Shown here: in pieces, positions 49,955 to 59,796 of the stretch
How the letters are laid out: each line of letters begins with the position of its first letter
Numbering within the stretch: the first letter of the stretch is position 1
Source of the DNA: a virus
Taxonomy: Duplodnaviria > Caudoviricetes
IMG/VR virus record: IMGVR_UViG_3300032214_001248
Span: 1 to 59,796 of that record
Reading direction: 5' to 3' (one strand)
Length of the DNA stretch: 59,796 bases
Made by a program: the position numbers and the translations under genes
Notes under the pieces: generated by a model
Database searches by the model: none
What the model saw: the letters and a program-made list of their open reading frames with translations, nothing else
What the model was told of the DNA's origin: nothing

Positions 49955-50614
49955 TCAAATTTTCCATTCAATTTCAACACCACCCAATGCTTCTGCAGTC
50001 GTTGGAAACTGTTCACAGAATATTTCTTTACAAAGTTTAGCAATATCCATATGTTCTTTTTGAGTTCCATTTTTTTCACGAAGTGCGATGTATGTTATCC
50101 ATGACCTTACAGAACCGGTCATATAGAGGCGTGTGGGCGTTGCTAGAGGCAGAACGAACCTTGCACACTCCTTTGCCACGCCGTGCTCTAGAAGGCGGTT
50201 GTAGAGGCGTAGAGAGTGCTCAAAATGAACGCGGATATCTTCTGTTAGTGTCAGCTTCAAATAGTCTGGAATGTCGTCAATACTGTTCTGACGATTCTTA
50301 GTATCCTGACGGCGAAGTTCAGGAAGAGGAATAGATTTTCCTAGCAGACTTGCATCAGCATACCGCTGCGAAAATTCCTGAAATGTAAAACTCCTATGTC
50401 GAAGTATTTGAGCTGCTACACCGCGTGTAGTATTAATCTCAACAGTCATTGTTGCCTGTTCAAAAATACTCCAGTGTTGATGCTTAATACAATACTTAAG
50501 TAGTCCAGAGAAATTATCATTCTCTTGGTTATTTGGATTACTTACACGAGCACAATATGCCATGTGCTTCTCTGCATCAGGAGTAACACTAATTAGTTTT
50601 ACTTCTGGTTTCAT
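49955..50614 (-). CDS. thyX: flavin-dependent thymidylate synthase ThyX
   Basis: AYCARVS, HQHWSIFEQ, QILRHRSFTFQEFSQRY and GVAKECARFVLP; start taken at MKPEVKLIS (50614). Confidence 0.95.
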   Translation of the reverse strand: MKPEVKLISVTPDAEKHMAYCARVSNPNNQENDNFSGLLKYCIKHQHWSIFEQATMTVEINTTRGVAAQILRHRSFTFQEFSQRYADASLLGKSIPLPELRRQDTKNRQNSIDDIPDYLKLTLTEDIRVHFEHSLRLYNRLLEHGVAKECARFVLPLATPTRLYMTGSVRSWITYIALREKNGTQKEHMDIAKLCKEIFCEQFPTTAEALGGVEIEWKI

Positions 50615-50627
50615 TAGTTCGTAGTCT

Positions 50628-50795
50628 TCAAACTTCATCGTCATAAAATACTTCGTCGTAATCTGAAATGTATCGGGAAATTTCTTCATATTGTGGAGGT
50701 TTGTATTCATCCACATCAGAATTAATTTCCGACTTAAGACATTCTACTAGAGATTCAAGATTTTGTACAATTAGCTTAAGCTTTTCTTTATCCAT
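50628..50795 (-). CDS. small acidic hypothetical protein (55 aa)
   Basis: Not in ORF track. MDKEKLKLIVQNLESLVECLKSEINSDVDEY...DYDEVFYDDEV, downstream of an early promoter. Confidence 0.7.
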   Translation of the reverse strand: MDKEKLKLIVQNLESLVECLKSEINSDVDEYKPPQYEEISRYISDYDEVFYDDEV

Positions 50796-50818
50796 TCATA
50801 TCAACCCGGACAAAGGTA

Positions 50819-50853
50819 ATTATACACAAAAAAAGAGGGGTAGTCAACCCCTC
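50819..50853 (-). promoter_or_regulatory. combined terminator and early promoter cassette, copy 1
   Basis: GAGGGGT-TGACT-ACCCCTC-TTTTTTT hairpin overlapping TTGACT-N17-TATAAT. Confidence 0.8.
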
Positions 50854-50858
50854 CTATA

Positions 50859-51356
50859 TTATGCCAAAGATTTAGATAGTTCTGAGAGAATGGAATACGC
50901 AGTATCCTGAGGAACATCAGTAAATTGAGCATTCATTTTTTTCCCCTGAATAATAATTACACACATATCATCCGAAGATGGTTCTGGGATAGTTCCAATA
51001 ATAGTTGAGGTTCCATCTTGATTTTCAGAAAAAACTAATTGTCCAATTACAGACTCTGAAAAAATATTAGGAAGTTTATTTCTATATCCATCCCAATCTG
51101 GAAGAAGTTTATGATTGTTAAATCTTGAAGAAATCATATCAGTAACTTTCATTGACTCAATTTCCGTGAAATAGGGCCAGTGCTTTTTAATAATATTTTT
51201 AATTCCTCTCAGACTTTTACTAGATGGAGTTCTTGCTACTTGACCCGCAAGTGCTTCTTTAATAATATTTCTCCACATTTTTAAAAATTCTGTTTCAAAA
51301 TGAGGATACTTTTCATACAAATCTTTAACTTTTAATCCAAGAGTTTTTGAAGCCAT
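50859..51356 (-). CDS. orphan hypothetical protein flanked by direct repeats
   Basis: AT-rich ORF. Start taken at MASKTLG (51356) because the longer ORF-track start runs through the promoter. Confidence 0.7.
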   Translation of the reverse strand: MASKTLGLKVKDLYEKYPHFETEFLKMWRNIIKEALAGQVARTPSSKSLRGIKNIIKKHWPYFTEIESMKVTDMISSRFNNHKLLPDWDGYRNKLPNIFSESVIGQLVFSENQDGTSTIIGTIPEPSSDDMCVIIIQGKKMNAQFTDVPQDTAYSILSELSKSLA

Positions 51357-51378
51357 AGTAAAATAAAAAACTAAATCC

Positions 51379-51414
51379 ATCATACACAAAAAAAGAGGGG
51401 TAGTCAACCCCCTC
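51379..51414 (-). promoter_or_regulatory. combined terminator and early promoter cassette, copy 2
   Basis: 30 bp identical to copy 1 (51382-51411 = 50822-50851); TTGACT-N17-TATGAT. Confidence 0.8.
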
Positions 51415-51418
51415 GTTC

Positions 51419-51739
51419 TCAATCTCTTTGTCTCCAGTCATCTGGTTTATCTTCAGTGAAAAAATCTATAATATCATCAACTGTATCAAATCCAGACACT
51501 CCTTTGGACTCGTGACCAATTCCACCAATATCAAGTTGGTTTAAAAAATCATCCAATCCACCTTCTTGCATATCGGGATTTTCTGCTTTCCGTCTTGCTT
51601 GACGAAGCAGTGTACCAGCACTTCTATTTGCCTGGGCAAGTTTCTCTGCCCAGATTATTTCGTTTAATTCTACTAATTCACCTTTTACAATTCGTTCACA
51701 TATTGCTTCTAGACGTAAACGATATTGAGTAGAGAGCAT
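51419..51739 (-). CDS. conserved cyanophage hypothetical protein
   Basis: MLSTQYRLRLEAIC...DDWRQRD. Confidence 0.75.
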   Translation of the reverse strand: MLSTQYRLRLEAICERIVKGELVELNEIIWAEKLAQANRSAGTLLRQARRKAENPDMQEGGLDDFLNQLDIGGIGHESKGVSGFDTVDDIIDFFTEDKPDDWRQRD

Positions 51740-51766
51740 ATATTTCTCCAGATATAGTGTATTTAT

Positions 51767-52093
51767 TTACCGCTCAATATAACTCAGAGTATGATTCTGA
51801 GCATAAAGTTGTTGAATAATGATATCACAACCAATCTTAGGATTGCAATCACCACAAGTATAGACATCCACTGCCGCTTTACCTTCTTCAGGCCAGGTAT
51901 GAATTGAGATATGACTTTCTGAAAGCAAACAAATGACAGTGACCCCCTGCGGTTCAAACTTTTTTGAGATAGTCTGAATCACAGTGGCACCGCTGGCAGA
52001 TGCTGCGTTTTCTAGTAAGTCTATAAGACAACGCTCGTCGTCCAAAAGGACAAACGAGCATCCGTACAAGTTAAGTAAGTAATGCTTCCCCAT
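51767..52093 (-). CDS. speD: S-adenosylmethionine decarboxylase proenzyme
   Basis: KFEPQGVT..CLLSESHISIHTWPE.G.AAVDVYTCG. Confidence 0.95.
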   Translation of the reverse strand: MGKHYLLNLYGCSFVLLDDERCLIDLLENAASASGATVIQTISKKFEPQGVTVICLLSESHISIHTWPEEGKAAVDVYTCGDCNPKIGCDIIIQQLYAQNHTLSYIER

Positions 52094-52094
52094 T

Positions 52095-52307
52095 TTACAG
52101 TGGATTCTCCTCCGCTTCCTTTATTAATGAACTGACAATATCTTCTGTTCCGTCCATCGTTTTGATAGCATACAGAGATGATTTTTTGTATTTTTTAATT
52201 TTTCTATATTGCTTTAAGATAATATCTATATTATCCAAATCTATAGTGATATTAGCATCTTTGCCAATTCTATTTTCTTTTCCTTGTCCACCAAATCCAG
52301 CAGTCAT
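52095..52307 (-). CDS. hypothetical protein
   Basis: 70-aa ORF tightly packed in the operon. Confidence 0.6.
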   Translation of the reverse strand: MTAGFGGQGKENRIGKDANITIDLDNIDIILKQYRKIKKYKKSSLYAIKTMDGTEDIVSSLIKEAEENPL

Positions 52308-52657
52308 TTTCTTTTTTTCTTTTCAGGTGCCTTATATCCCCACAGTTTGGGGTTTACTCTTCCATATCCAAAATCAATTTTCTTAATAGAACCCGAACCA
52401 TACTTATCATAGTACATATCAAAAAGACTTACTTTTTTTGCTGTACGACAAAGATCAATAAACTCTTCCCCATCAACAACATACCAAACAAGATATGCAT
52501 CTGATGGGAATGAAGGATCGTTTGCTTGTTGTAGGGTTGTTTTTTCTAAAACAATTTCGCATCCATATTGGGCAGCAACAATTTTTTTAGATTCTTGTTT
52601 TTTTTCTGCCATCTTTTTTCCCTTCTCTGCAACTACTGTCATGAACGACCACCCCAT
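52304..52657 (-). CDS. conserved cyanophage hypothetical protein
   Basis: PSDAYLVWY...FDMYYDKYG...GYGRVNPKLWG; start uncertain. Confidence 0.7.
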   Translation of the reverse strand: MGWSFMTVVAEKGKKMAEKKQESKKIVAAQYGCEIVLEKTTLQQANDPSFPSDAYLVWYVVDGEEFIDLCRTAKKVSLFDMYYDKYGSGSIKKIDFGYGRVNPKLWGYKAPEKKKRK

Positions 52658-53229
52658 TGAATATCGGGATATGCATCTTTTACATTGTCAAAACTAATTT
52701 TATATTTATCTGTCAGTTTTTTATCTTTAACTAAACAGATAAGTTCTGCCTCTTTTGGATGCAAACCTTGCAAAATATTAATAAACATTGTTTCTCTACG
52801 GATAGAACTCAATCCATTATTACCACCCTTTACAAAATTATAAAACATTTGATATTCTTTTCGAATCGAAGATCTACCCTGATCCATAGATCCCAAAGAA
52901 TTTGAACTCAATTCATCCATTTTAGATACTGCATCTTGAACTTTAGAACTTAAAGTTCCACTATAAGATGTCTGTTCACCAGTACTTGCATACGGAACAT
53001 CACCTTCAGGAAGAAGAGTAATTATAGATTCATCAAAGTTCCAAATTAAAACAGTTTTAAGAGAGGGGTCATCATAAATTTTTAGGACTTCCACTTTCTT
53101 TGCGTTACTTCTTTGCTTTGATGCAAGTTCTAAAATTTCAAATATAAACGGATTAGTTGGAAGAGCTTCTATTGATTTTTCAGATGAGGTGCTCTTAGTT
53201 TTTGTTACAGTCATAAATTTCAATTGCAA
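52639..53229 (-). CDS. conserved T4-like hypothetical protein
   Basis: LLPEGDVPY...RRETMFINILQGLHPKEAELICLVKDKKL. Confidence 0.75.
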   Translation of the reverse strand: MQLKFMTVTKTKSTSSEKSIEALPTNPFIFEILELASKQRSNAKKVEVLKIYDDPSLKTVLIWNFDESIITLLPEGDVPYASTGEQTSYSGTLSSKVQDAVSKMDELSSNSLGSMDQGRSSIRKEYQMFYNFVKGGNNGLSSIRRETMFINILQGLHPKEAELICLVKDKKLTDKYKISFDNVKDAYPDIQWGGRS

Positions 53230-53261
53230 TTGCCTAGATTTAACATATTTAGTTGTATTTT

Positions 53262-53495
53262 TTAATCGTCTTCTTCATCAAATTCTTCATCATCATCAAA
53301 ATATCCTTCTTCAAATCTAACGGAAACAACTTCATCGGGTATGATTTGTCCGTTTTCATCAAAAAACTCTGGGTGTAGATATGGAGTCTTTGATTCTAGT
53401 AGATGCCTATAAGTCAACCAACCTATTATACTACCAACCATAAAAAAGAGCAAAGTAAACATTATAGTAAATGTTATTGCATATGCGGTGTCCAT
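53262..53495 (-). CDS. small membrane-anchored hypothetical protein
   Basis: N-terminal hydrophobic helix, HPEFFDENG and an acidic tail. Confidence 0.7.
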   Translation of the reverse strand: MDTAYAITFTIMFTLLFFMVGSIIGWLTYRHLLESKTPYLHPEFFDENGQIIPDEVVSVRFEEGYFDDDEEFDEEDD

Positions 53496-53512
53496 TTATT
53501 TTCTCCAGAGAG

Positions 53513-53755
53513 CTAATTTTTCTTAATATCAAAGTGAAATTCTATAAAGAAATGAAACTCTCTACGAAAGAGAGAAATCATTTTACCAAACTTCACTTGA
53601 AAAGTTTTTGGTTTTGATGACTCCCTCTTCCTCCTATTCCTAAGTAGTAATTCAACTCCCCGATTAATTTCGGGTTCAAATTTATTTAGTTTGTTTTTTC
53701 CTTCTTCCTGGTCGTTTATCATGATTATATTTCCAAGCGTCTTCGAGAATTGCAT
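53513..53755 (-). CDS. small basic hypothetical protein
   Basis: INRGVELLLRNRR...FGKMISLFRREFHF; the true start is probably downstream of the ORF-track start. Confidence 0.55.
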   Translation of the reverse strand: MQFSKTLGNIIMINDQEEGKNKLNKFEPEINRGVELLLRNRRKRESSKPKTFQVKFGKMISLFRREFHFFIEFHFDIKKN

Positions 53756-54041
53756 AAAGATAATTTCTTATCTTTCTTGCTTGTGGTTTCGGAATATGCC
53801 CATAACCTTCACGAAGTTGTTTATGAATTTCGTCGGCACCACCTTCCAGATATTCGTCAAGATCCATTACAAGATTACTGATTTCACTTGCAGTACTACT
53901 TTCAATAAACTCTTCTACCTCACGCCTAAGTGTTCCACGAATTTTTAGATAATCATAAAACTTTAAAACAAATTGTCCATTGAAAGCAAGATCGATTGCT
54001 TTTTCAACGTCAAAATAAACTTCGTGAAAAGTAGATTCCAT
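53682..54041 (-). CDS. conserved cyanophage hypothetical protein
   Basis: LREGYGHIPKPQARKIRNYL..IL.DAWKY. Confidence 0.75.
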   Translation of the reverse strand: MESTFHEVYFDVEKAIDLAFNGQFVLKFYDYLKIRGTLRREVEEFIESSTASEISNLVMDLDEYLEGGADEIHKQLREGYGHIPKPQARKIRNYLYAILEDAWKYNHDKRPGRRKKQTK

Positions 54042-54280
54042 CAGACTAGATTTTGCTCTTTAAGATATTGGACCGTATCTGAACAACCACCAAGATGTTC
54101 TTGATCATTCAAAACAACCTGAGGAAACGTAGAACCTTGTCCGAATTGAGCATAAAACCCATCACGTTCAAAGTGTTCACCAAGATTGTAAACAACATGC
54201 TCAAGGTTTGCTAATTGCAATACCTGTTTGATTTTGCTGCAATATGGGCAACCATCTTTTGAATAAATTGTAAATTTCAT
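54041..54280 (-). CDS. nrdC: glutaredoxin
   Basis: YSKDGCPYC...TFPQV....HLGGC. Confidence 0.92.
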   Translation of the reverse strand: MKFTIYSKDGCPYCSKIKQVLQLANLEHVVYNLGEHFERDGFYAQFGQGSTFPQVVLNDQEHLGGCSDTVQYLKEQNLV

Positions 54281-54304
54281 ATTTTTTAAAGTATATAAGG
54301 TAAT

Positions 54305-54568
54305 TTATACGATCACAGGTTCTGCCATTCTTTCTGGCAAAATATTTTGCGATTTAAGTTGATTGTCATCTTCCATTCTTGTTGATGGAATATTTACAAC
54401 TTGATCAAGAAGAATCTTAACTTGTCTATAAGTTCTCCCTTCCACAAAAGATACCATCACCATAGCATCCTGAACTGTTGCGGTATCGCAGATTTTTTTA
54501 CCATTTTTATCAAATACCGAATAATGATCAGTGTATTCAATCTGCTGAAGTTTTTGTATCTGATTCAT
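54305..54568 (-). CDS. hypothetical protein
   Basis: Part of the ORF-track 115-aa frame; start moved to an internal ATG to reduce overlap with the upstream small gene. Confidence 0.55.
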   Translation of the reverse strand: MNQIQKLQQIEYTDHYSVFDKNGKKICDTATVQDAMVMVSFVEGRTYRQVKILLDQVVNIPSTRMEDDNQLKSQNILPERMAEPVIV

Positions 54569-54680
54569 TTGATGTAGATGGTGGTTTTTCATTATAAGTC
54601 TTTTTTGGTGTGGTGTAAAGACCAGGCCAAGTGTCTCTAATAATTTCTGCAAGTTTATATGGAGTTGTTGAATTTATCAT
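54537..54680 (-). CDS. small hypothetical protein (47 aa)
   Basis: Not in ORF track. ATGA overlap with the HNH stop; MINSTTPYKLAEIIRDTWPGLY... Confidence 0.55.
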   Translation of the reverse strand: MINSTTPYKLAEIIRDTWPGLYTTPKKTYNEKPPSTSNESDTKTSAD

Positions 54681-55048
54681 GAAGCATTATTTCTTCTTGG
54701 GCGATAACTATAAAGATTTGTTGGTTTTGGCGGTTTCATCCAGTCTTCTATTTTATTCAAACTATCTTCATTATAGAAGTCTTGTTGGACATACCATAAC
54801 TTCCAATACTCATGCCCTTTAGATTGATTGCAAGAATGACAACAGCACACCACATTTCTTGTGATATCTAAACCACCTTTTGATTGTGGAACAACGTGGT
54901 CTAATGTTAGATTTTCTTCAGAGTCACAGTAAGCACATTTGTGACTCCAACTTTCTTTTATGTGTTTTCTCCACAATCGTTTTGCTTCGGATGAACTTGT
55001 TGTCTGCAAATTAAACAAGTAATCTTGAGGCGACTGGAGAATATCCAT
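54677..55048 (-). CDS. HNH endonuclease (short, McrA-like)
   Basis: CAYC.....LTLDHVVPQSKGG.D...NVVCCC.SCNQSKG. Confidence 0.9.
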   Translation of the reverse strand: MDILQSPQDYLFNLQTTSSSEAKRLWRKHIKESWSHKCAYCDSEENLTLDHVVPQSKGGLDITRNVVCCCHSCNQSKGHEYWKLWYVQQDFYNEDSLNKIEDWMKPPKPTNLYSYRPRRNNAS

Positions 55049-55076
55049 AAGTACATGCGACTTGTGAATATTTATT

Positions 55077-56099
55077 TTATCTTACATGATGCCCACCAAA
55101 CATATAACGCATTCCATTTAGGATTTTTGCTCCGAATGATCCGAGATTGCGTGAGTTAAATCTTTCAAATAGGGCAGTAGTAATAACAGGAGCGGGAACC
55201 CCCAAGTCCACAGCGGCAGAAACAGTCCAACGACCCTCACCGCTGTCGGATACGCCTCCAGAGAACTGTTCAAGGCGACCATCCCTGCGTAGCACATCAG
55301 CAGTAAGGTCAAGTAGCCAAGACCCAACCACGCTACCACGGCGCCATAACTCAGCAACTTCAGCAACATCAATATCATAGCAGTAACTTTCTGGGTCTGC
55401 CATAGGGGCAACCTCTGCGTCTCCTTCTCTAACATACTGAGCACCTGCGTTTGCATTCTTAATAATATTGAATCCTTCAGCATACGCTTGCATAATACCA
55501 TACTCAATACCATTATGCACCATCTTCACAAAGTGTCCTGCTCCAGGACCACCGCAATGCAACCAACCGTATTCGGCAGAAGTTACATCAGATGTTGGAT
55601 CCGTTCTATGGCAGGAGTGAATATCTGGGGAGAGGGCGGAGAATATCTTTGAACAAGTGGCGACTGCAGTATCTCCACCTCCAACCATAAGACAGTATCC
55701 ACGATCCAGACCATAAACACCACCGCTAGTGCCACAATCAATATATTGGATACCCATCTTTGCCAAACGTTCTGCTCTTTTCCGACTGTCTTTAAAATTG
55801 CTATTGCCATGATCAATAATAATATCTCCTTCACTACAATATCGTAGTAACTCATTGATTGTCTCCTCTACTGTTTCGGCAGGTACAACCATCTGAAAGA
55901 TACCTGGTTTATTTTGTCCCTTGACTACTTGAACAAGGCTTTGTATAGAATTTGCAACTCCATTAACATATCCGTTTTCGTAGGCTTCTTGTGCTTTTTC
56001 ATAGTTTCTCCGATAACCCCAAACTTCAATTCCTGCTTTCATCATACGACGGGACATACCTTCGCCCATCCGCCCAAGACCAATTAATCCTACTTTCAT
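55077..56099 (-). CDS. gnd: 6-phosphogluconate dehydrogenase (short type)
   Basis: GLIGLGRMG, IIDHGNS, DCGTSGG, GAGHFVKMVHNGIEYG and DSGEGRW. Confidence 0.97.
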   Translation of the reverse strand: MKVGLIGLGRMGEGMSRRMMKAGIEVWGYRRNYEKAQEAYENGYVNGVANSIQSLVQVVKGQNKPGIFQMVVPAETVEETINELLRYCSEGDIIIDHGNSNFKDSRKRAERLAKMGIQYIDCGTSGGVYGLDRGYCLMVGGGDTAVATCSKIFSALSPDIHSCHRTDPTSDVTSAEYGWLHCGGPGAGHFVKMVHNGIEYGIMQAYAEGFNIIKNANAGAQYVREGDAEVAPMADPESYCYDIDVAEVAELWRRGSVVGSWLLDLTADVLRRDGRLEQFSGGVSDSGEGRWTVSAAVDLGVPAPVITTALFERFNSRNLGSFGAKILNGMRYMFGGHHVR

Positions 56100-56108
56100 T
56101 TTTTACTC

Positions 56109-57440
56109 CTATTTTAATTTGAGTGGATAGTCCCACTTAGTAACAAGTTCTGTTTTTTGAAATGGTCCCCAATTTCCTGGAGAATAAAGATATGGCATTG
56201 TCATAATACGACAATGATCTCCAGTACATAAAAGATCATCAACAATTCTCCAAGATTCCAACACTTCATCAGCATGAACGAAGTGTGATTGATCTTCATT
56301 TACTGCATCATAAAATAGTTTTACATATCCATCAATTGCTTTTTCTACTGGATAATGATACTGAAGAAGTGCTGATTCTACTTTATCATTTAGTCCAGGA
56401 GATTTAATGTCAATACGCATATCTAAATGAGGATCTGGTTGCAATCTCATTACAATTCTATCGTTGCATTCGTGCCCATCAAATAACTGTTGTGGGGGAG
56501 ATCTAAATTTAATTACAACCTCAACACAATTTACAGGCATTTTTTTACCCGTCATAAAGTGAAATGGAACTCCTTTCCATCTCCAGTTATCAACATAAAG
56601 ATCTCCAGCAACAAAAGTTGGAGTTTGAGAACCTGGTGTTACTCCTTCCTCATTTTTATATTCATCATATTGTCCAAGAACTACATTATCACCAAGTCTA
56701 GTTGCGGCAAGAACCTTAACTTTTTCTCTGCGAATTTCTTTTGCATCATTTTTACAAGGAGGTTCCATTGCAATCAATGCAAGTACCTGAAGCATATGGT
56801 TTTGAAGCATATCTCTCACGGCACCAGCAGTATCATAATACTGAGCACGACCTTCACAACCAATTGTTTCAGTTGCAAAGATTTGAACTTCTTCTACGAA
56901 GTTTCTATTCCAAAGTGGTTCAAGAAGAATATTGCTAAAACGAGTGGCAAGAATGTTATTAACAGTATCTTTACCCAGATAATGGTCAATGCGATATACT
57001 TGTTTTTCGCGTAAATATCCAGCCACCACAGATTGTAAGTGATTAGCAGATTGAAGATCGGTGCCAAAAGGTTTCTCAATAATGACTCTAGATTTTTCTG
57101 CGTCATCTAATTTACCTGCCTCTTTTAGATTGGTAATTGCATCAACATATCTTTCTGGAGGAACTGATAGAAAATAAGTGGTGTCATCATAAGAATCTAT
57201 CAGTTTTAAAGATTCTAAATCACTCAGATCACAAGAAACATAATCAAGTCTTTTAATAAACTCTTGCGAATAATTACCTAAAGTTTCAACCCAACTCTCC
57301 TTACTGTGTTTAGTTCTGGAAGCACCAATAATTTTAAACCCTTTTGGTAAAAGATTTTTCTTGTGAAGAGTGTAAAGTGCTGGTATAAGTTTCCTTTTAC
57401 AAAGATCTCCAGTTGCTCCAAATATTACTATTGATTTCAT
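56109..57440 (-). CDS. zwf: glucose-6-phosphate dehydrogenase
   Basis: IFGATGDL, EKPFG, YRIDHYLGK, RDMLQNH and NWRWKGVPF. Confidence 0.97.
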   Translation of the reverse strand: MKSIVIFGATGDLCKRKLIPALYTLHKKNLLPKGFKIIGASRTKHSKESWVETLGNYSQEFIKRLDYVSCDLSDLESLKLIDSYDDTTYFLSVPPERYVDAITNLKEAGKLDDAEKSRVIIEKPFGTDLQSANHLQSVVAGYLREKQVYRIDHYLGKDTVNNILATRFSNILLEPLWNRNFVEEVQIFATETIGCEGRAQYYDTAGAVRDMLQNHMLQVLALIAMEPPCKNDAKEIRREKVKVLAATRLGDNVVLGQYDEYKNEEGVTPGSQTPTFVAGDLYVDNWRWKGVPFHFMTGKKMPVNCVEVVIKFRSPPQQLFDGHECNDRIVMRLQPDPHLDMRIDIKSPGLNDKVESALLQYHYPVEKAIDGYVKLFYDAVNEDQSHFVHADEVLESWRIVDDLLCTGDHCRIMTMPYLYSPGNWGPFQKTELVTKWDYPLKLK

Positions 57441-58099
57441 TCTTTTTGATTATCAATAACTGCTTCCCAATCCTTCTGAAAGAGTTCTAGACCCTTATCA
57501 GTCATAATGTTCTTATACATTGCCCAGAATACAACTGGTGGAATTGTAACAACATCAGCACCATTGAGGAAAGATTGTTCTACTTGTCTTACATCACGAA
57601 GAGATGCTGCAAGAATTTGTGTTTCGGTAAATGCATGATCATACACCTTACGAATGTTCTTGATGAGTTCAATTCCATCCACAGAATTGTCCATCCAACG
57701 ACCTACGAAAGGTGAGATGAATGTTGCACCTGCTTTAGATGCAAGAATTGCTTGTGCAACTGAGAACACCAAAGTTACATTAACTTTAATTCCTTTATCG
57801 GAAAGTGTTTTACATACCTTAAGTCCTTCTACAGTACAGGGAACTTTAATTGTAACTGCAGGTGCAATTGTATAATAATCTTGTGCTTGTGAGAGCATTT
57901 CTTCGGCAGTATCGGCAACAACTTCAGCGGAAATGCTTTCTAAATTTGAAAATGTGGTGGAAATTTCTCCAATGACTTCTTGGAGTTGTCTTCCACTTTT
58001 GAGAATTAGAGATGGGTTTGTAGTGACCCCATCTAATAGTCCAGTATCATATGCTGGGCCAATCATTGAAACATCAGCAGTATCTAAAAAAATCTTCAT
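57437..58099 (-). CDS. talC: transaldolase (TalC/Fsa family)
   Basis: MKIFLDTAD, GVTTNPSL, IKVP.T.EGL, NVTLVFS, SPFVGR and LAASLR; start at ATG 58099. Confidence 0.97.
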   Translation of the reverse strand: MKIFLDTADVSMIGPAYDTGLLDGVTTNPSLILKSGRQLQEVIGEISTTFSNLESISAEVVADTAEEMLSQAQDYYTIAPAVTIKVPCTVEGLKVCKTLSDKGIKVNVTLVFSVAQAILASKAGATFISPFVGRWMDNSVDGIELIKNIRKVYDHAFTETQILAASLRDVRQVEQSFLNGADVVTIPPVVFWAMYKNIMTDKGLELFQKDWEAVIDNQKE

Positions 58100-58122
58100 A
58101 TAAAAGTAAAAACTCATAAGTA

Positions 58123-58151
58123 ATTATACGGAGTTCTTACTAAGGTGTCAG
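58123..58151 (-). promoter_or_regulatory. sigma70-type promoter for talC-zwf-gnd
   Basis: CTGACA-N17-TATAAT upstream of talC. Confidence 0.65.
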
Positions 58152-58189
58152 ATTTTGTTATGAATTGAAGACATAATAAGTCTCATATG

Positions 58190-58744
58190 TTAGGTAGAGT
58201 AACATTTGAGATTTTCTACTAATGTTTGGAGTTCTTGTAGGGAAGCGTCACATTTTATCCAATTTGCCCTTGAAGACACAACCCATATGTTATCTGGAGT
58301 ATAACCTTTTCCTGGATCTTTTTGATCTAAACTAGGATTTCTTGGATCTCTTTTATCATTTGTTGATACAAGAGGTATTCCAAGCAAAGGACAAATTTCT
58401 GGAATAACAATATCATCTATAGTTATAGTAAAAGGTATTCTCTTCCTTTTTGCTCTATGTTGAGCATTATGGAACATCTTATATCTTCTATCATCTACCT
58501 TGCGTGTTCCAGGTTCCTTTCTACTTCTTGGATTATTTGGAGATACTTCTCTCAACCTTTCCAATCTTAAACATCCACAGGATATTATTTTTCCAGATAC
58601 AATATCGTGCCTTCTTGTTTTAGTAGTTTTACCTCCACAAGAACAAGAACATTCACATAATACATACTTCTTACAAGGAGATTGATATTCTTTTTGTATC
58701 GTCAATCTATTAAAAGTCTGCCCTACTATACTATTTTTTATCAT
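58190..58744 (-). CDS. putative free-standing homing endonuclease (HNH/His-Me-like)
   Basis: N-terminal GQTFNRLTI...CECSCSCG...SCGC module and C-terminal ICPLLG...PSLDQKDPGKGYTPDNIWVVS.RAN..K nuclease-like motif. Confidence 0.8.
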   Translation of the reverse strand: MIKNSIVGQTFNRLTIQKEYQSPCKKYVLCECSCSCGGKTTKTRRHDIVSGKIISCGCLRLERLREVSPNNPRSRKEPGTRKVDDRRYKMFHNAQHRAKRKRIPFTITIDDIVIPEICPLLGIPLVSTNDKRDPRNPSLDQKDPGKGYTPDNIWVVSSRANWIKCDASLQELQTLVENLKCYST

Positions 58745-58799
58745 ACCTTCAATTATATCTATTATTATTTATAATTTTTATTTTTTTGAATGAAGGTAT
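58743..58799 (-). promoter_or_regulatory. late promoter (TATAAATA, 58766-58773) between inverted repeats covering the endonuclease RBS and start
   Basis: ATACCTTCA...TGAAGGTAT 9-bp inverted repeat; the downstream arm includes GAAGGT and the AT of ATG. Confidence 0.6.
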
Positions 58800-58807
58800 T
58801 ATAACAT

Positions 58808-58833
58808 AAAAAAGACCCTTATATAAGGGTCTT
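58808..58833 (-). terminator. intrinsic terminator after psbD
   Basis: AAGACCCTT-ATAT-AAGGGTCTT followed by a T tract. Confidence 0.8.
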
Positions 58834-58841
58834 GAAAATTA

Positions 58842-59795
58842 TCAAAGAGCATTCCCTCTCGGAAGAACTTCTTCTGGTAGAACCAGATTCATTTGAGGTT
58901 GGTCTACACTAAACATCCAAGCACGAATTCCTTCGTTGAGCAGTATATTTTTAGAATAAAATGTTTCAAACTCAGGATCTTCAGCAGCACGAATCTCTTG
59001 ACTTACAAAGTCGTAAGCACGCAGATTAAGAGCAAGACCGATGATACCGATACTGGAAGTCCAAAGACCCATAACAGGGACGAAAAGCATAAAGAAATGC
59101 AACCAACGCTTGTTACTGAAAGCAATACCAAAAATCTGCGACCAGAATCGGTTTGCAGTAACCATTGAATAGGTTTCCTCTTCTTGAGTTGGTTCAAAGG
59201 CTTTAAAAGTGTTTGCTTGTTCACTGTCTTCAAATAGCGTGTTTTCTACAGTTGCTCCGTGAATCGCACAGAGTAGTGCTCCACCCAGTATACCAGCAAC
59301 TCCCATCATATGGAAGGGGTTGAGCGTCCAATTGTGGAAACCCTGTAGGAAGAGCAGGAAACGGAAGATGGCGGCGACACCAAAGGAAGGTGCAAAGAAC
59401 CAACTGGATTGCCCTAGAGGGTACATCAGGAACACACTGACGAAGACTGCGATGGGTCCAGAGAAGGCAATCGCATTATAAGGACGAATGCCCACAAGAC
59501 GGGCAATCTCAAACTGCCTAAGCATAAATCCGATCAGACTAAAGGCCCCGTGGAGTGCCACAAAAGTCCAGAGTCCCCCAAGTTGGAACCACCTGACGAT
59601 ATCCCCTTGAGCCTCAGGACCCCAGAGCAGAAGAAGAGAATGACCCATAGCGTCTGCTGGAGTACTAACTGCCGCAGTAAGAAAGTTTGCACCCTCAAGA
59701 TAGGAACTTGCCAACCCGTGAGTATACCAACTCGTAACGAAAGTCGTCCCAGTAAGCCAACCACCAAGAGCAAGGTAAGCAGTGGGAAAAAGAAG
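58842..59795 (-). CDS. psbD: photosystem II D2 protein (5' end beyond window)
   Basis: Frame open to the window edge ([35 protein letters not shown]...), with [10 protein letters not shown] and C-terminal [10 protein letters not shown]. Confidence 0.98.
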
Positions 59796-59796
59796 A

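Follow-up and report, generated by a model that had tools for sequence, protein, structure and literature searches.

The nuclease gene directly behind psbD, the gene for the photosystem II protein D2, in a 59,796-bp IMG/VR virus fragment (IMGVR_UViG_3300032214_001248, the whole of which is called the window here; completeness estimate 28%) is likely to be a free-standing, PacI-like homing endonuclease cassette that is aimed at the 3′ end of psbD and spreads by intronless homing with co-conversion. The order on the minus strand at the right end of the window is psbD, a 97-nt spacer, the nuclease open reading frame (ORF; 58190..58744, 184 amino acids), talC, zwf, gnd and an HNH_5 ORF. The window end cuts psbD, leaving its 3′ 317 codons (58845..59796, minus strand; Pfam Photo_RC E 4.7e-70) and its stop codon (58842-58844), and its DNA is 81–83% identical to psbD of Kyanoviridae (T4-like) Synechococcus phages. 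A reading made earlier from the DNA letters and ORF translations (the sequence-only reading) had placed a homing-type endonuclease directly after psbD; the adjacency is confirmed, with a terminator hairpin and a promoter in the spacer. In a mixed infection, the enzyme would cut nuclease-free psbD alleles in or beside their conserved 3′ end, and repair from the carrier genome would copy the cassette together with the adjacent psbD end. The carriers themselves would have to be uncuttable.

The nuclease family is strictly linked to psbD. By scanning IMG/VR with the nuclease we obtained 42 loci (L-numbers below denote IMG/VR loci or contigs), of which 38 include upstream DNA, three are cut at a contig end and one (L043) holds a 22-codon remnant. 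The nuclease lies downstream of psbD in all 38 loci with upstream DNA, its match starting 97–158 nt behind the last psbD codon and its ORF 64–113 nt behind the stop. The best relative in a GenBank phage, SWZG_00023 of siphovirus S-SKS1 (56% identity), is likewise found directly behind psbD. The genes downstream of the nuclease vary and include talC, a small hydrophobic/membrane ORF, a GIY-YIG gene and several unrelated ORFs; across all loci, more than 40 different gene clusters follow psbD. Since psbD is the only constant neighbour of the nuclease, we suggest that the recognition site lies in psbD. Carriage of the family is patchy. A DNA pattern from the D2 body was used to draw a sample with 70 evaluable loci, 9 of which had the family; among the 80 loci closest by D2 it was present in 6 (relatives of 39–42% identity behind psbD in four, closer relatives in two).

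Presence and absence of the cassette are polymorphic at one site in otherwise collinear genomes. For this comparison IMG/VR was scanned with talC, giving 80 loci, many of which read psbD, terminator hairpin, ~90 nt and talC. These empty-site alleles run terminator-TTTTTTAT|TATGTCTT...talC, and the flanks in the window are identical to them base for base around 630 extra bases (58176..58805, minus strand, delimited against L053/L054 and others). The insertion starts right after the T-run of the psbD intrinsic terminator (hairpin and T-run at 58808..58833, minus strand, read from the sequence and kept in the empty-site alleles by alignment), and the flank downstream of it is talC (transaldolase; 57437..58117, minus strand; Pfam TAL_FSA E 3.6e-54). 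Empty sites are present in L052-L057, L059-L061, L069, L070, L079-L082 and L094; occupied counterparts, besides the window, are L003/L125, L032-34, L035 and L119-123. Logan contigs from runs X1 (57700-59115, 0 differences), X2 (58121-58910, 6 differences) and X3 (58411-59001, 3 differences) reproduce both cassette junctions and the variant psbD patch described below, and a relative without the cassette is represented by an X2 contig (depth 132) in which 11 other letters link 58166 to 58846; all three runs are from one study, may include the source sample and are not independent support. The last codons of the nuclease ORF (58193..58207, minus strand) are similar to the beginning of a small hydrophobic ORF behind psbD in other phages (compared with L020, L025, L015 and the nuclease-free L074) and look like a remnant brought from another genomic context. 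Together the alignments support a free-standing, putatively homing-type nuclease cassette whose family is tied to the psbD 3′ end, and the sequence-only reading is borne out to this extent.

A base-by-base comparison shows that, in at least two lineages, the element evidently brings along a recoded psbD end of its own. The carrier L148 is the same as the nuclease-free L182 up to codon 345, and the last seven codons differ at 9 of 21 bases, all silently; the motif TATAAATA stands directly after the recoded stop, and the nuclease ORF ends at the old psbD stop region. L179 has the same recoded end on a different psbD body. In L165 and L186 psbD is complete, and the final ten psbD codons and the terminator occur once more beyond the cassette. 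This second end is fused in frame to the nuclease in L186 (2056-2559), where the two copies differ at 8 of 33 bases including the stop codon, and closes an extra small ORF in L165 (2494-3150). Fungal mitochondria have mobile endonuclease ORFs that supply a replacement gene end in a comparable manner ('gene hybrids', e.g. Allomyces atp6). The likeness lies in the insertion within the last psbD codons with a recoded replacement end (L165/L186 and L148/L179) and in the old psbD end left stranded behind the cassette (L165/L186). The window cassette differs, starting after the terminator and without a stranded psbD end, and no second D2-end motif was found within positions 50000-59796 of the window. 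Thus the earlier proposal that the nuclease travels with a recoded psbD end holds for these relatives, over the last 7–10 codons, and is not supported for the window, where the boundary lies after the terminator and outside psbD.

The position of the window cassette behind the terminator counts against a target confined to psbD, as a target spanning the intergenic insertion point is possible. A homing element could in that case be directed at the intergenic terminator/talC-promoter junction or a nearby site, with the D2-tail changes as unrelated hitch-hikers. The left junction lies exactly after the terminator T-run in L223 as in the window, and the insertion splits sequence that is continuous in empty sites, a split which alone would make carriers immune. 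However, the intergenic sequence and the downstream gene vary widely among carriers, with psbD alone remaining constant, and the junction falls inside psbD in L148/L179 and L165/L186. We regard an intergenic target as quite unlikely.

The D2 tail provides a further line of evidence for a cassette aimed at psbD. D2 is numbered here with its last residue as 352, which gives H336, F339 and F341 as in the photosystem literature (bioRxiv 10.1101/502450). We compared 28 distinct carrier with 75 distinct non-carrier psbD 3′ ends (270 nt each) by mean pairwise differences. Within codons 307–341 (58878..58982 in the window, minus strand), carriers are hypervariable at the protein level, amino-acid differences being approximately fivefold higher than in non-carriers (0.195 vs 0.036), whereas the third codon positions differ by 0.535 in carriers and 0.461 in non-carriers. 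The control codons 263–306 gave amino-acid differences of 0.028 for carriers vs 0.033 for non-carriers, and codons 342–352 gave 0.018 vs 0.010. Distinct protein haplotypes numbered 26 among the 28 carriers and 19 among the 75 non-carriers. The pattern-based sample contained nine carriers with 1–7 changes (mean 2.8) and 61 others with a mean of 1.4, 23 of them with none (Mann-Whitney p 0.005, the sequences being related and not independent); one of the 61 others, L279, has 13 changes and carries a GIY-YIG endonuclease. These comparisons support an enrichment of D2-tail amino-acid changes in psbD alleles scored as nuclease-carrying. We propose that codons 307–341 vary so strongly in carriers because carriers must be uncuttable and have undergone repeated co-conversion.

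In the window itself, 8 of the 35 residues in codons 307–341 differ from the majority tail of the 103 distinct phage psbD 3′ ends (T316S, L325I, A330F, P331S, H336Q, E337M, F339L and F341L), whereas nuclease-free alleles differ at 0–5 of 35 (median 0). The D2 end quoted in the sequence-only reading is the exact translation of 58845-58961 (minus strand), and its remark that several normally conserved residues are changed, including the His of DQPHE, is correct; several phage D2 proteins, from alleles with and without the nuclease, have Gly in place of H336. The reading frame of the variant is intact, and the changes in the patch formed by codons 330–341 (58878..58913, minus strand) count as conservative in a hydrophobic pocket (two F to L, one E to M and one H to Q). 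When 5.8 billion proteins were searched with the 60-residue tail only, the best identity was 88% and a single cluster (P0003, 23 members) had the same patch. A degenerate pattern for FS...QMNLVL matched six further contigs in IMG/VR. Five of them (L328, L329, L330, L332 and L333) share the patch and the sixth, L331, has a variant ending in ...QMNFVF. The patch recurs in several lineages. Positions 58887-58925 of the window (39 nt, codons 326–338) are 100% identical to L331 in nucleotide sequence with otherwise diverged flanks, and L328 differs from the window at eight third-position sites in codons 324–345. Related tails are found in the carriers L223 (HMNLVL) and L030/L041 (HLNLVL). The closest nuclease relatives (L002-L010, 87–90% identical) share S316 and I325 with the window and retain the A330, P331, H336 and E337 that are F, S, Q and M in the window; N338R is present in most of them, or N338S, and F341L in some. 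In addition, the tails of L220, L252 and L286 have SS for AP at 330–331 and M at 325, and the 1.4 kb downstream of them contain no nuclease of either family.

Several observations weigh against a direct role of the nuclease in shaping the D2 tail. None of the six other IMG/VR contigs with the patch carries the nuclease of the window; five have a GIY-YIG endonuclease and one (L331) has no nuclease. The HLNLVL tail also occurs in L073 without a nuclease. Conversely, consensus tails are found in some carriers, over codons 307–341 in L186 and over the 330–341 patch in L020-L024 and L038-L040. The excess of changes is about twofold, not fivefold, in the less biased pattern-based sample, and the non-carrier sets were picked by similarity to the window talC or D2, so that their tail diversity is perhaps understated. 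No single nucleotide position splits carriers from non-carriers; a diagnostic 'resistance' nucleotide was rejected as a candidate, the best positions separating just 25–43% of carriers. Finally, nuclease-free psbD pairs also show mosaic identity along the gene. The tie between the patch and this nuclease in the sequence-only reading is therefore not upheld, given six patch contigs without the nuclease and nuclease kin (L002-L010) without the patch, a situation close to the one (the same variant common in phages without the nuclease) which that reading had named as telling against it. By alignment the patch is best described as a circulating allele segment, mostly though not solely placed before homing nucleases, and more often before the GIY-YIG type than before that of the window. 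The patch changes A330F, P331S, H336Q, E337M, F339L and F341L would then be a pre-existing segment among homing-occupied alleles rather than a creation of this nuclease.

These observations raise the possibility that the tail reflects ordinary mosaic evolution of psbD, through intragenic recombination and relaxed constraint on a viral D2 that is short-lived, and that the nuclease only marks recombination-prone lineages without selecting anything. The window psbD is indeed a mosaic, as are nuclease-free pairs. Its first 240 nt are 97–100% identical to several nuclease-free loci and the middle and rest 82–93%, and its last 111 nt show 60–78% identity to anything, the best being the group with 90% identical nucleases. 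The variant patch without any nuclease (L331, L073) and H336G in nuclease-free alleles fit this explanation as well. Against it, the protein excess is confined to codons 307–341, beside the cassette, at equal synonymous divergence. Furthermore, distinct alleles of the FS or [QH][ML]NL type have a homing nuclease in 5 of 7 cases, compared to about 10 of 70 loci in the pattern-based sample, although they were partly found via the nuclease and the ascertainment is not clean. Mosaic evolution as the whole explanation appears unlikely to us. Identity of the window to the collinear, nuclease-free L053 drops from 0.98–1.00 to 0.72 at the cassette and returns to 0.92–0.97 in zwf; we give this V-shaped valley little weight as proof of co-conversion, since nuclease-free pairs show similar, shallower valleys.

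A second family of homing nucleases occupies the same site. L328, L329, L330, L332 and L333 have a GIY-YIG/NUMOD3 endonuclease after psbD that is 68–72% identical to that of L279 (2482-3162). The ORF lies ~100 nt after psbD on the reverse strand in L328, L329, L330 and L332, and is truncated to 120 codons in L333. The last ~40 nt of an HNH-type nuclease ORF form the end of the GIY-YIG ORFs here and are read in frame in L279 but not in L328, suggesting that the GIY-YIG gene overwrote an HNH-type cassette. Kinship of the two proteins was rejected, as only the last ~11 residues match and represent a nucleotide-level remnant. The window may be an older state of the lineage with the patch and the GIY-YIG gene, or a recombinant. 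It is tempting to extend this to an arms race in which the HNH-type and GIY-YIG families compete for the psbD 3′ end and force D2 changes at H336, F339 and F341, the counterparts of D1 ligands of the manganese cluster, FS...QMNLVL being an escape allele to one or both; we put this forward tentatively, as a possible though doubtful scenario. If true, selfish DNA would be a main driver of viral photosystem II protein evolution. As a separate observation, L043 (2210-4007) contains a psbA 3′ exon, followed by the 22-codon remnant of an HNH-type nuclease 3′ end and a 311-aa GIY-YIG ORF; upstream, an HNH-like ORF lies within psbA or ahead of it. It seems that the same elements also visit the flank of psbA.

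The nuclease ORF matches the PHROG profiles 3322 ('endonuclease', E 1e-30) and 1035 ('endonuclease VII', E 1e-20), and PHROG endonuclease VII/HNH profiles match it at E 1e-20 to 7e-8. Pfam and NCBIfam gave no match at E <= 0.1 for the nucleases of the window, L012, L165 and L223, and a sequence search of the PDB with the family profile gave none at E <= 1. Two domains were distinguished, a Cys-rich beta domain (residues 1–67) and a PacI-like HNH (beta-beta-alpha-metal) domain (residues 80–180). In an alignment of 27 relatives (A1), the N-terminal domain is variable, exists in three forms and is swapped between lineages, with C34, C36, C56 and C58 invariant, while the C-terminal domain has invariant CPLL, PSLD (137–140), GY (147–148), N152, RAN (159–161), K164 and D166. 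The resulting motif, PSLD...GY...N...RAN..K.D, lacks the catalytic His of classical HNH enzymes, and no His is invariant among the 27 sequences. An AlphaFold model (predicted local distance difference test score, pLDDT, 86) predicts the beta-beta-alpha-metal fold for the catalytic domain. PacI (PDB 3ldy/3m7k) was the best fold match by both aligners used, with Foldseek (E 7.8e-3, template modelling score 0.50) and with VIA (Z 7.6, root-mean-square deviation 3.4 Å over 99 residues). Further HNH matches by VIA were Gme HNH, McrA and Cas9 HNH at Z 3.4–4. It should be set against the assignment that a Z of 7.6 is in the possibly unspecific range of this tool (comfort level 8).

In PacI, Asp and Asn hold the metal and Tyr takes the place of His as the general base (PMC4081073). 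The invariant D140, Y148 and N152/N161 would fit such a metal site and Tyr base, and we infer that the window nuclease is a PacI-like member of the HNH superfamily that would use Asp, Tyr and Asn instead of the classical His. The two enzymes have no detectable sequence similarity, and the Cys4 zinc sites of PacI, a restriction enzyme, lie within the domain, whereas the Cys cluster is found here in a separate N-terminal domain.

F-CphI of cyanophage S-PM2 is reportedly a free-standing homing endonuclease next to psbA, a description said to go back to work of Zeng et al. in 2009. As in that case, the gene immediately ahead of the free-standing nuclease gene here encodes a photosystem II reaction-centre protein of a T4-like cyanophage, and the presumed target is that conserved gene in nuclease-free phages. 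The differences are the unrelated protein family, the psbD 3′ end as opposed to a psbA intron site, and self-protection, which here would be provided by sequence divergence or insertion rather than by an intron. Alignment A1 shows none of the marks of F-CphI and the Endo VII motif (CX2-4C, a central DHDH, a conserved Arg, CX2C and Asn; Fang et al. 2018, PMC6083498), and hhalign of A1 against F-CphI gave a probability of 0.1%; kinship was thus rejected. L223 presents both psbD ends occupied, with an Endo VII-motif (F-CphI-type) ORF directly upstream of psbD (163-606) and the PacI-like nuclease downstream.

The nuclease gene is under strong purifying selection and is not decaying: the ratio of non-synonymous to synonymous substitution rates (dN/dS) is 0.05–0.09 at a dS of 0.7–1.2 against the six closest relatives. 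Such selection, together with apparent late expression (below), would also fit a domesticated nuclease that serves host DNA degradation or general exclusion of competitors and is no longer homing. The patchy carriage among psbD loci argues against this, as do the swapping of the N-terminal domain, the overwriting by GIY-YIG genes and the fixed position relative to psbD, which are typical of selfish elements. Domestication therefore seems very improbable.

The cassette also appears to bring its own expression signals. The motif TATAAATA (58766..58773, minus strand), which we take to be a late promoter as in T4-like phages, is invariant in 20 of 20 aligned cassettes. In the window it falls in the loop of a predicted helix between a 5′ arm, ATACCTTCA (58791..58799, minus strand), and a 3′ arm, TGAAGGTAT (58743..58751, minus strand), which covers the Shine-Dalgarno sequence and the first two bases of the ATG, so that the 5′ arm pairs with ribosome-binding site and start codon. 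The window leader folds with a minimum free energy of −10.9 kcal/mol (z −1.9). For each cassette, duplex folding of the upstream segment to the translation start was compared with shuffles; the window arm duplex (−12.2 kcal/mol) was reached by 5 of 300. In 14 of the 20 cassettes no more than 9 of 300 shuffles matched the masking helix, and the arm sequences covary between cassette groups; the other 6 of the 20 have no convincing masking helix. RNAalifold found no structure on the cassette leader, the arms being out of register between groups. The read-through RNA from psbD would be untranslatable, its ribosome-binding site hidden in the hairpin, and RNA from the late promoter would be translated. 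The cassette thus seems to have its own late promoter and a hairpin masking the ribosome-binding site, a regulation of the T4 homing-gene type. The T4 intron endonuclease genes (I-TevI and others) likewise have a late promoter in the loop of a helix by which the Shine-Dalgarno sequence and start codon are sequestered; gene family and host differ, the helix is unconvincing in some cassettes here, and the control described here is a prediction from sequence. A TATAAT box is present in the window cassette (58798-58803, minus strand). Five cassettes of alignment A2 (L030, L031, L035, L036 and L119) have a sigma-70-like TTGACT, 17 nt and TATGAT upstream of the late promoter, with TATGGT instead of TATGAT in L036 and L119; the window has the TATAAT box only.

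The cassette also invites comparison with T4 SegF (gene 56), SegG (gene 32) and MobE, which reportedly move by intronless homing, in work ascribed to Belle in 2002 and to Liu in 2003. These, too, are nuclease genes that lie between conserved genes and are present in some related phages and absent from others. The T4 enzymes cut the neighbouring conserved gene, co-convert its flanks and are expressed late, as the cassette here would do. The differences are the PacI-like HNH fold, as against GIY-YIG or classical HNH, and the affected gene, a host-derived photosynthesis gene whose protein sequence is altered and not just its silent sites. A literature search found no paper describing a psbD-linked homing endonuclease, the supplement of Sullivan 2010 (Fig. 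S7, endonuclease alignments) being outside that search. The passages of Sullivan et al. 2010 (PMC3037559) on endonuclease-flanked zwf/gnd cassettes in cyanophages mention nothing at the psbD end. New here are the cassette after the terminator, the patch common to GIY-YIG-occupied alleles and the nucleotide-level trace of one homing gene replacing another.

Other features of the locus were inspected. The sequence-only reading had described the last ~130 nt of psbD as more AT-rich than the preceding sequence. This is real, yet only slightly past the norm. G+C in the window psbD is 0.38 at 58840-58959 against 0.44–0.53 further 5′, and over the last 170 nt it is 0.37–0.43 compared to 0.42–0.47 in nuclease-free alleles. 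The drop is general in phage psbD, nuclease-free genes showing the same fall, and AT-richness was rejected as a mark of foreign origin. The block at 59556-59795, at the 5′ end of the window psbD, has 97–100% DNA identity to L133, L127, L094 and L053, whose psbD genes are otherwise 82–93% identical to it; it is sharply bounded and either conserved or recently exchanged. The psbD of L098 (1498-2337) has an in-frame internal loss near codons 283–306 relative to its near-twin L097, and may be a defective allele or an artefact of assembly. A classical HNH_5 endonuclease ORF of 123 aa (54677-55048, minus strand) flanks gnd on the far side of the talC-zwf-gnd block, recalling the endonuclease-flanked carbon-metabolism cassette of Sullivan et al. 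2010. Close homologues of this ORF are found directly behind psbD in L196 (1277-1648), L222 and L256, where the D2 tail matches the consensus or departs from it at a single residue.

The locus offers an uncharacterised nuclease family, probably with a long target specificity and, as the sequence suggests, a Tyr-based HNH active site, and a natural case of one homing gene overwritten by another. It is open to experiment, as the cultured phage S-SKS1 carries a homologue of the nuclease. The changed D2 residues are not arbitrary: H336, F339 and F341 of D2 correspond to H337, D342 and A344 of D1 around the water-splitting cluster (bioRxiv 10.1101/502450), making the tails a natural set of presumably viable variants of the site that mirrors the cluster. 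Infected cells express the viral psbD copies, which can also return to host gene pools by recombination (Sullivan 2010, PMC3037559). Non-synonymous changes would therefore be spread by a selfish element that rides on the 3′ end of psbD. D2 is one of the most conserved proteins known, and here a genetic parasite seems to reshape a viral photosynthesis protein.

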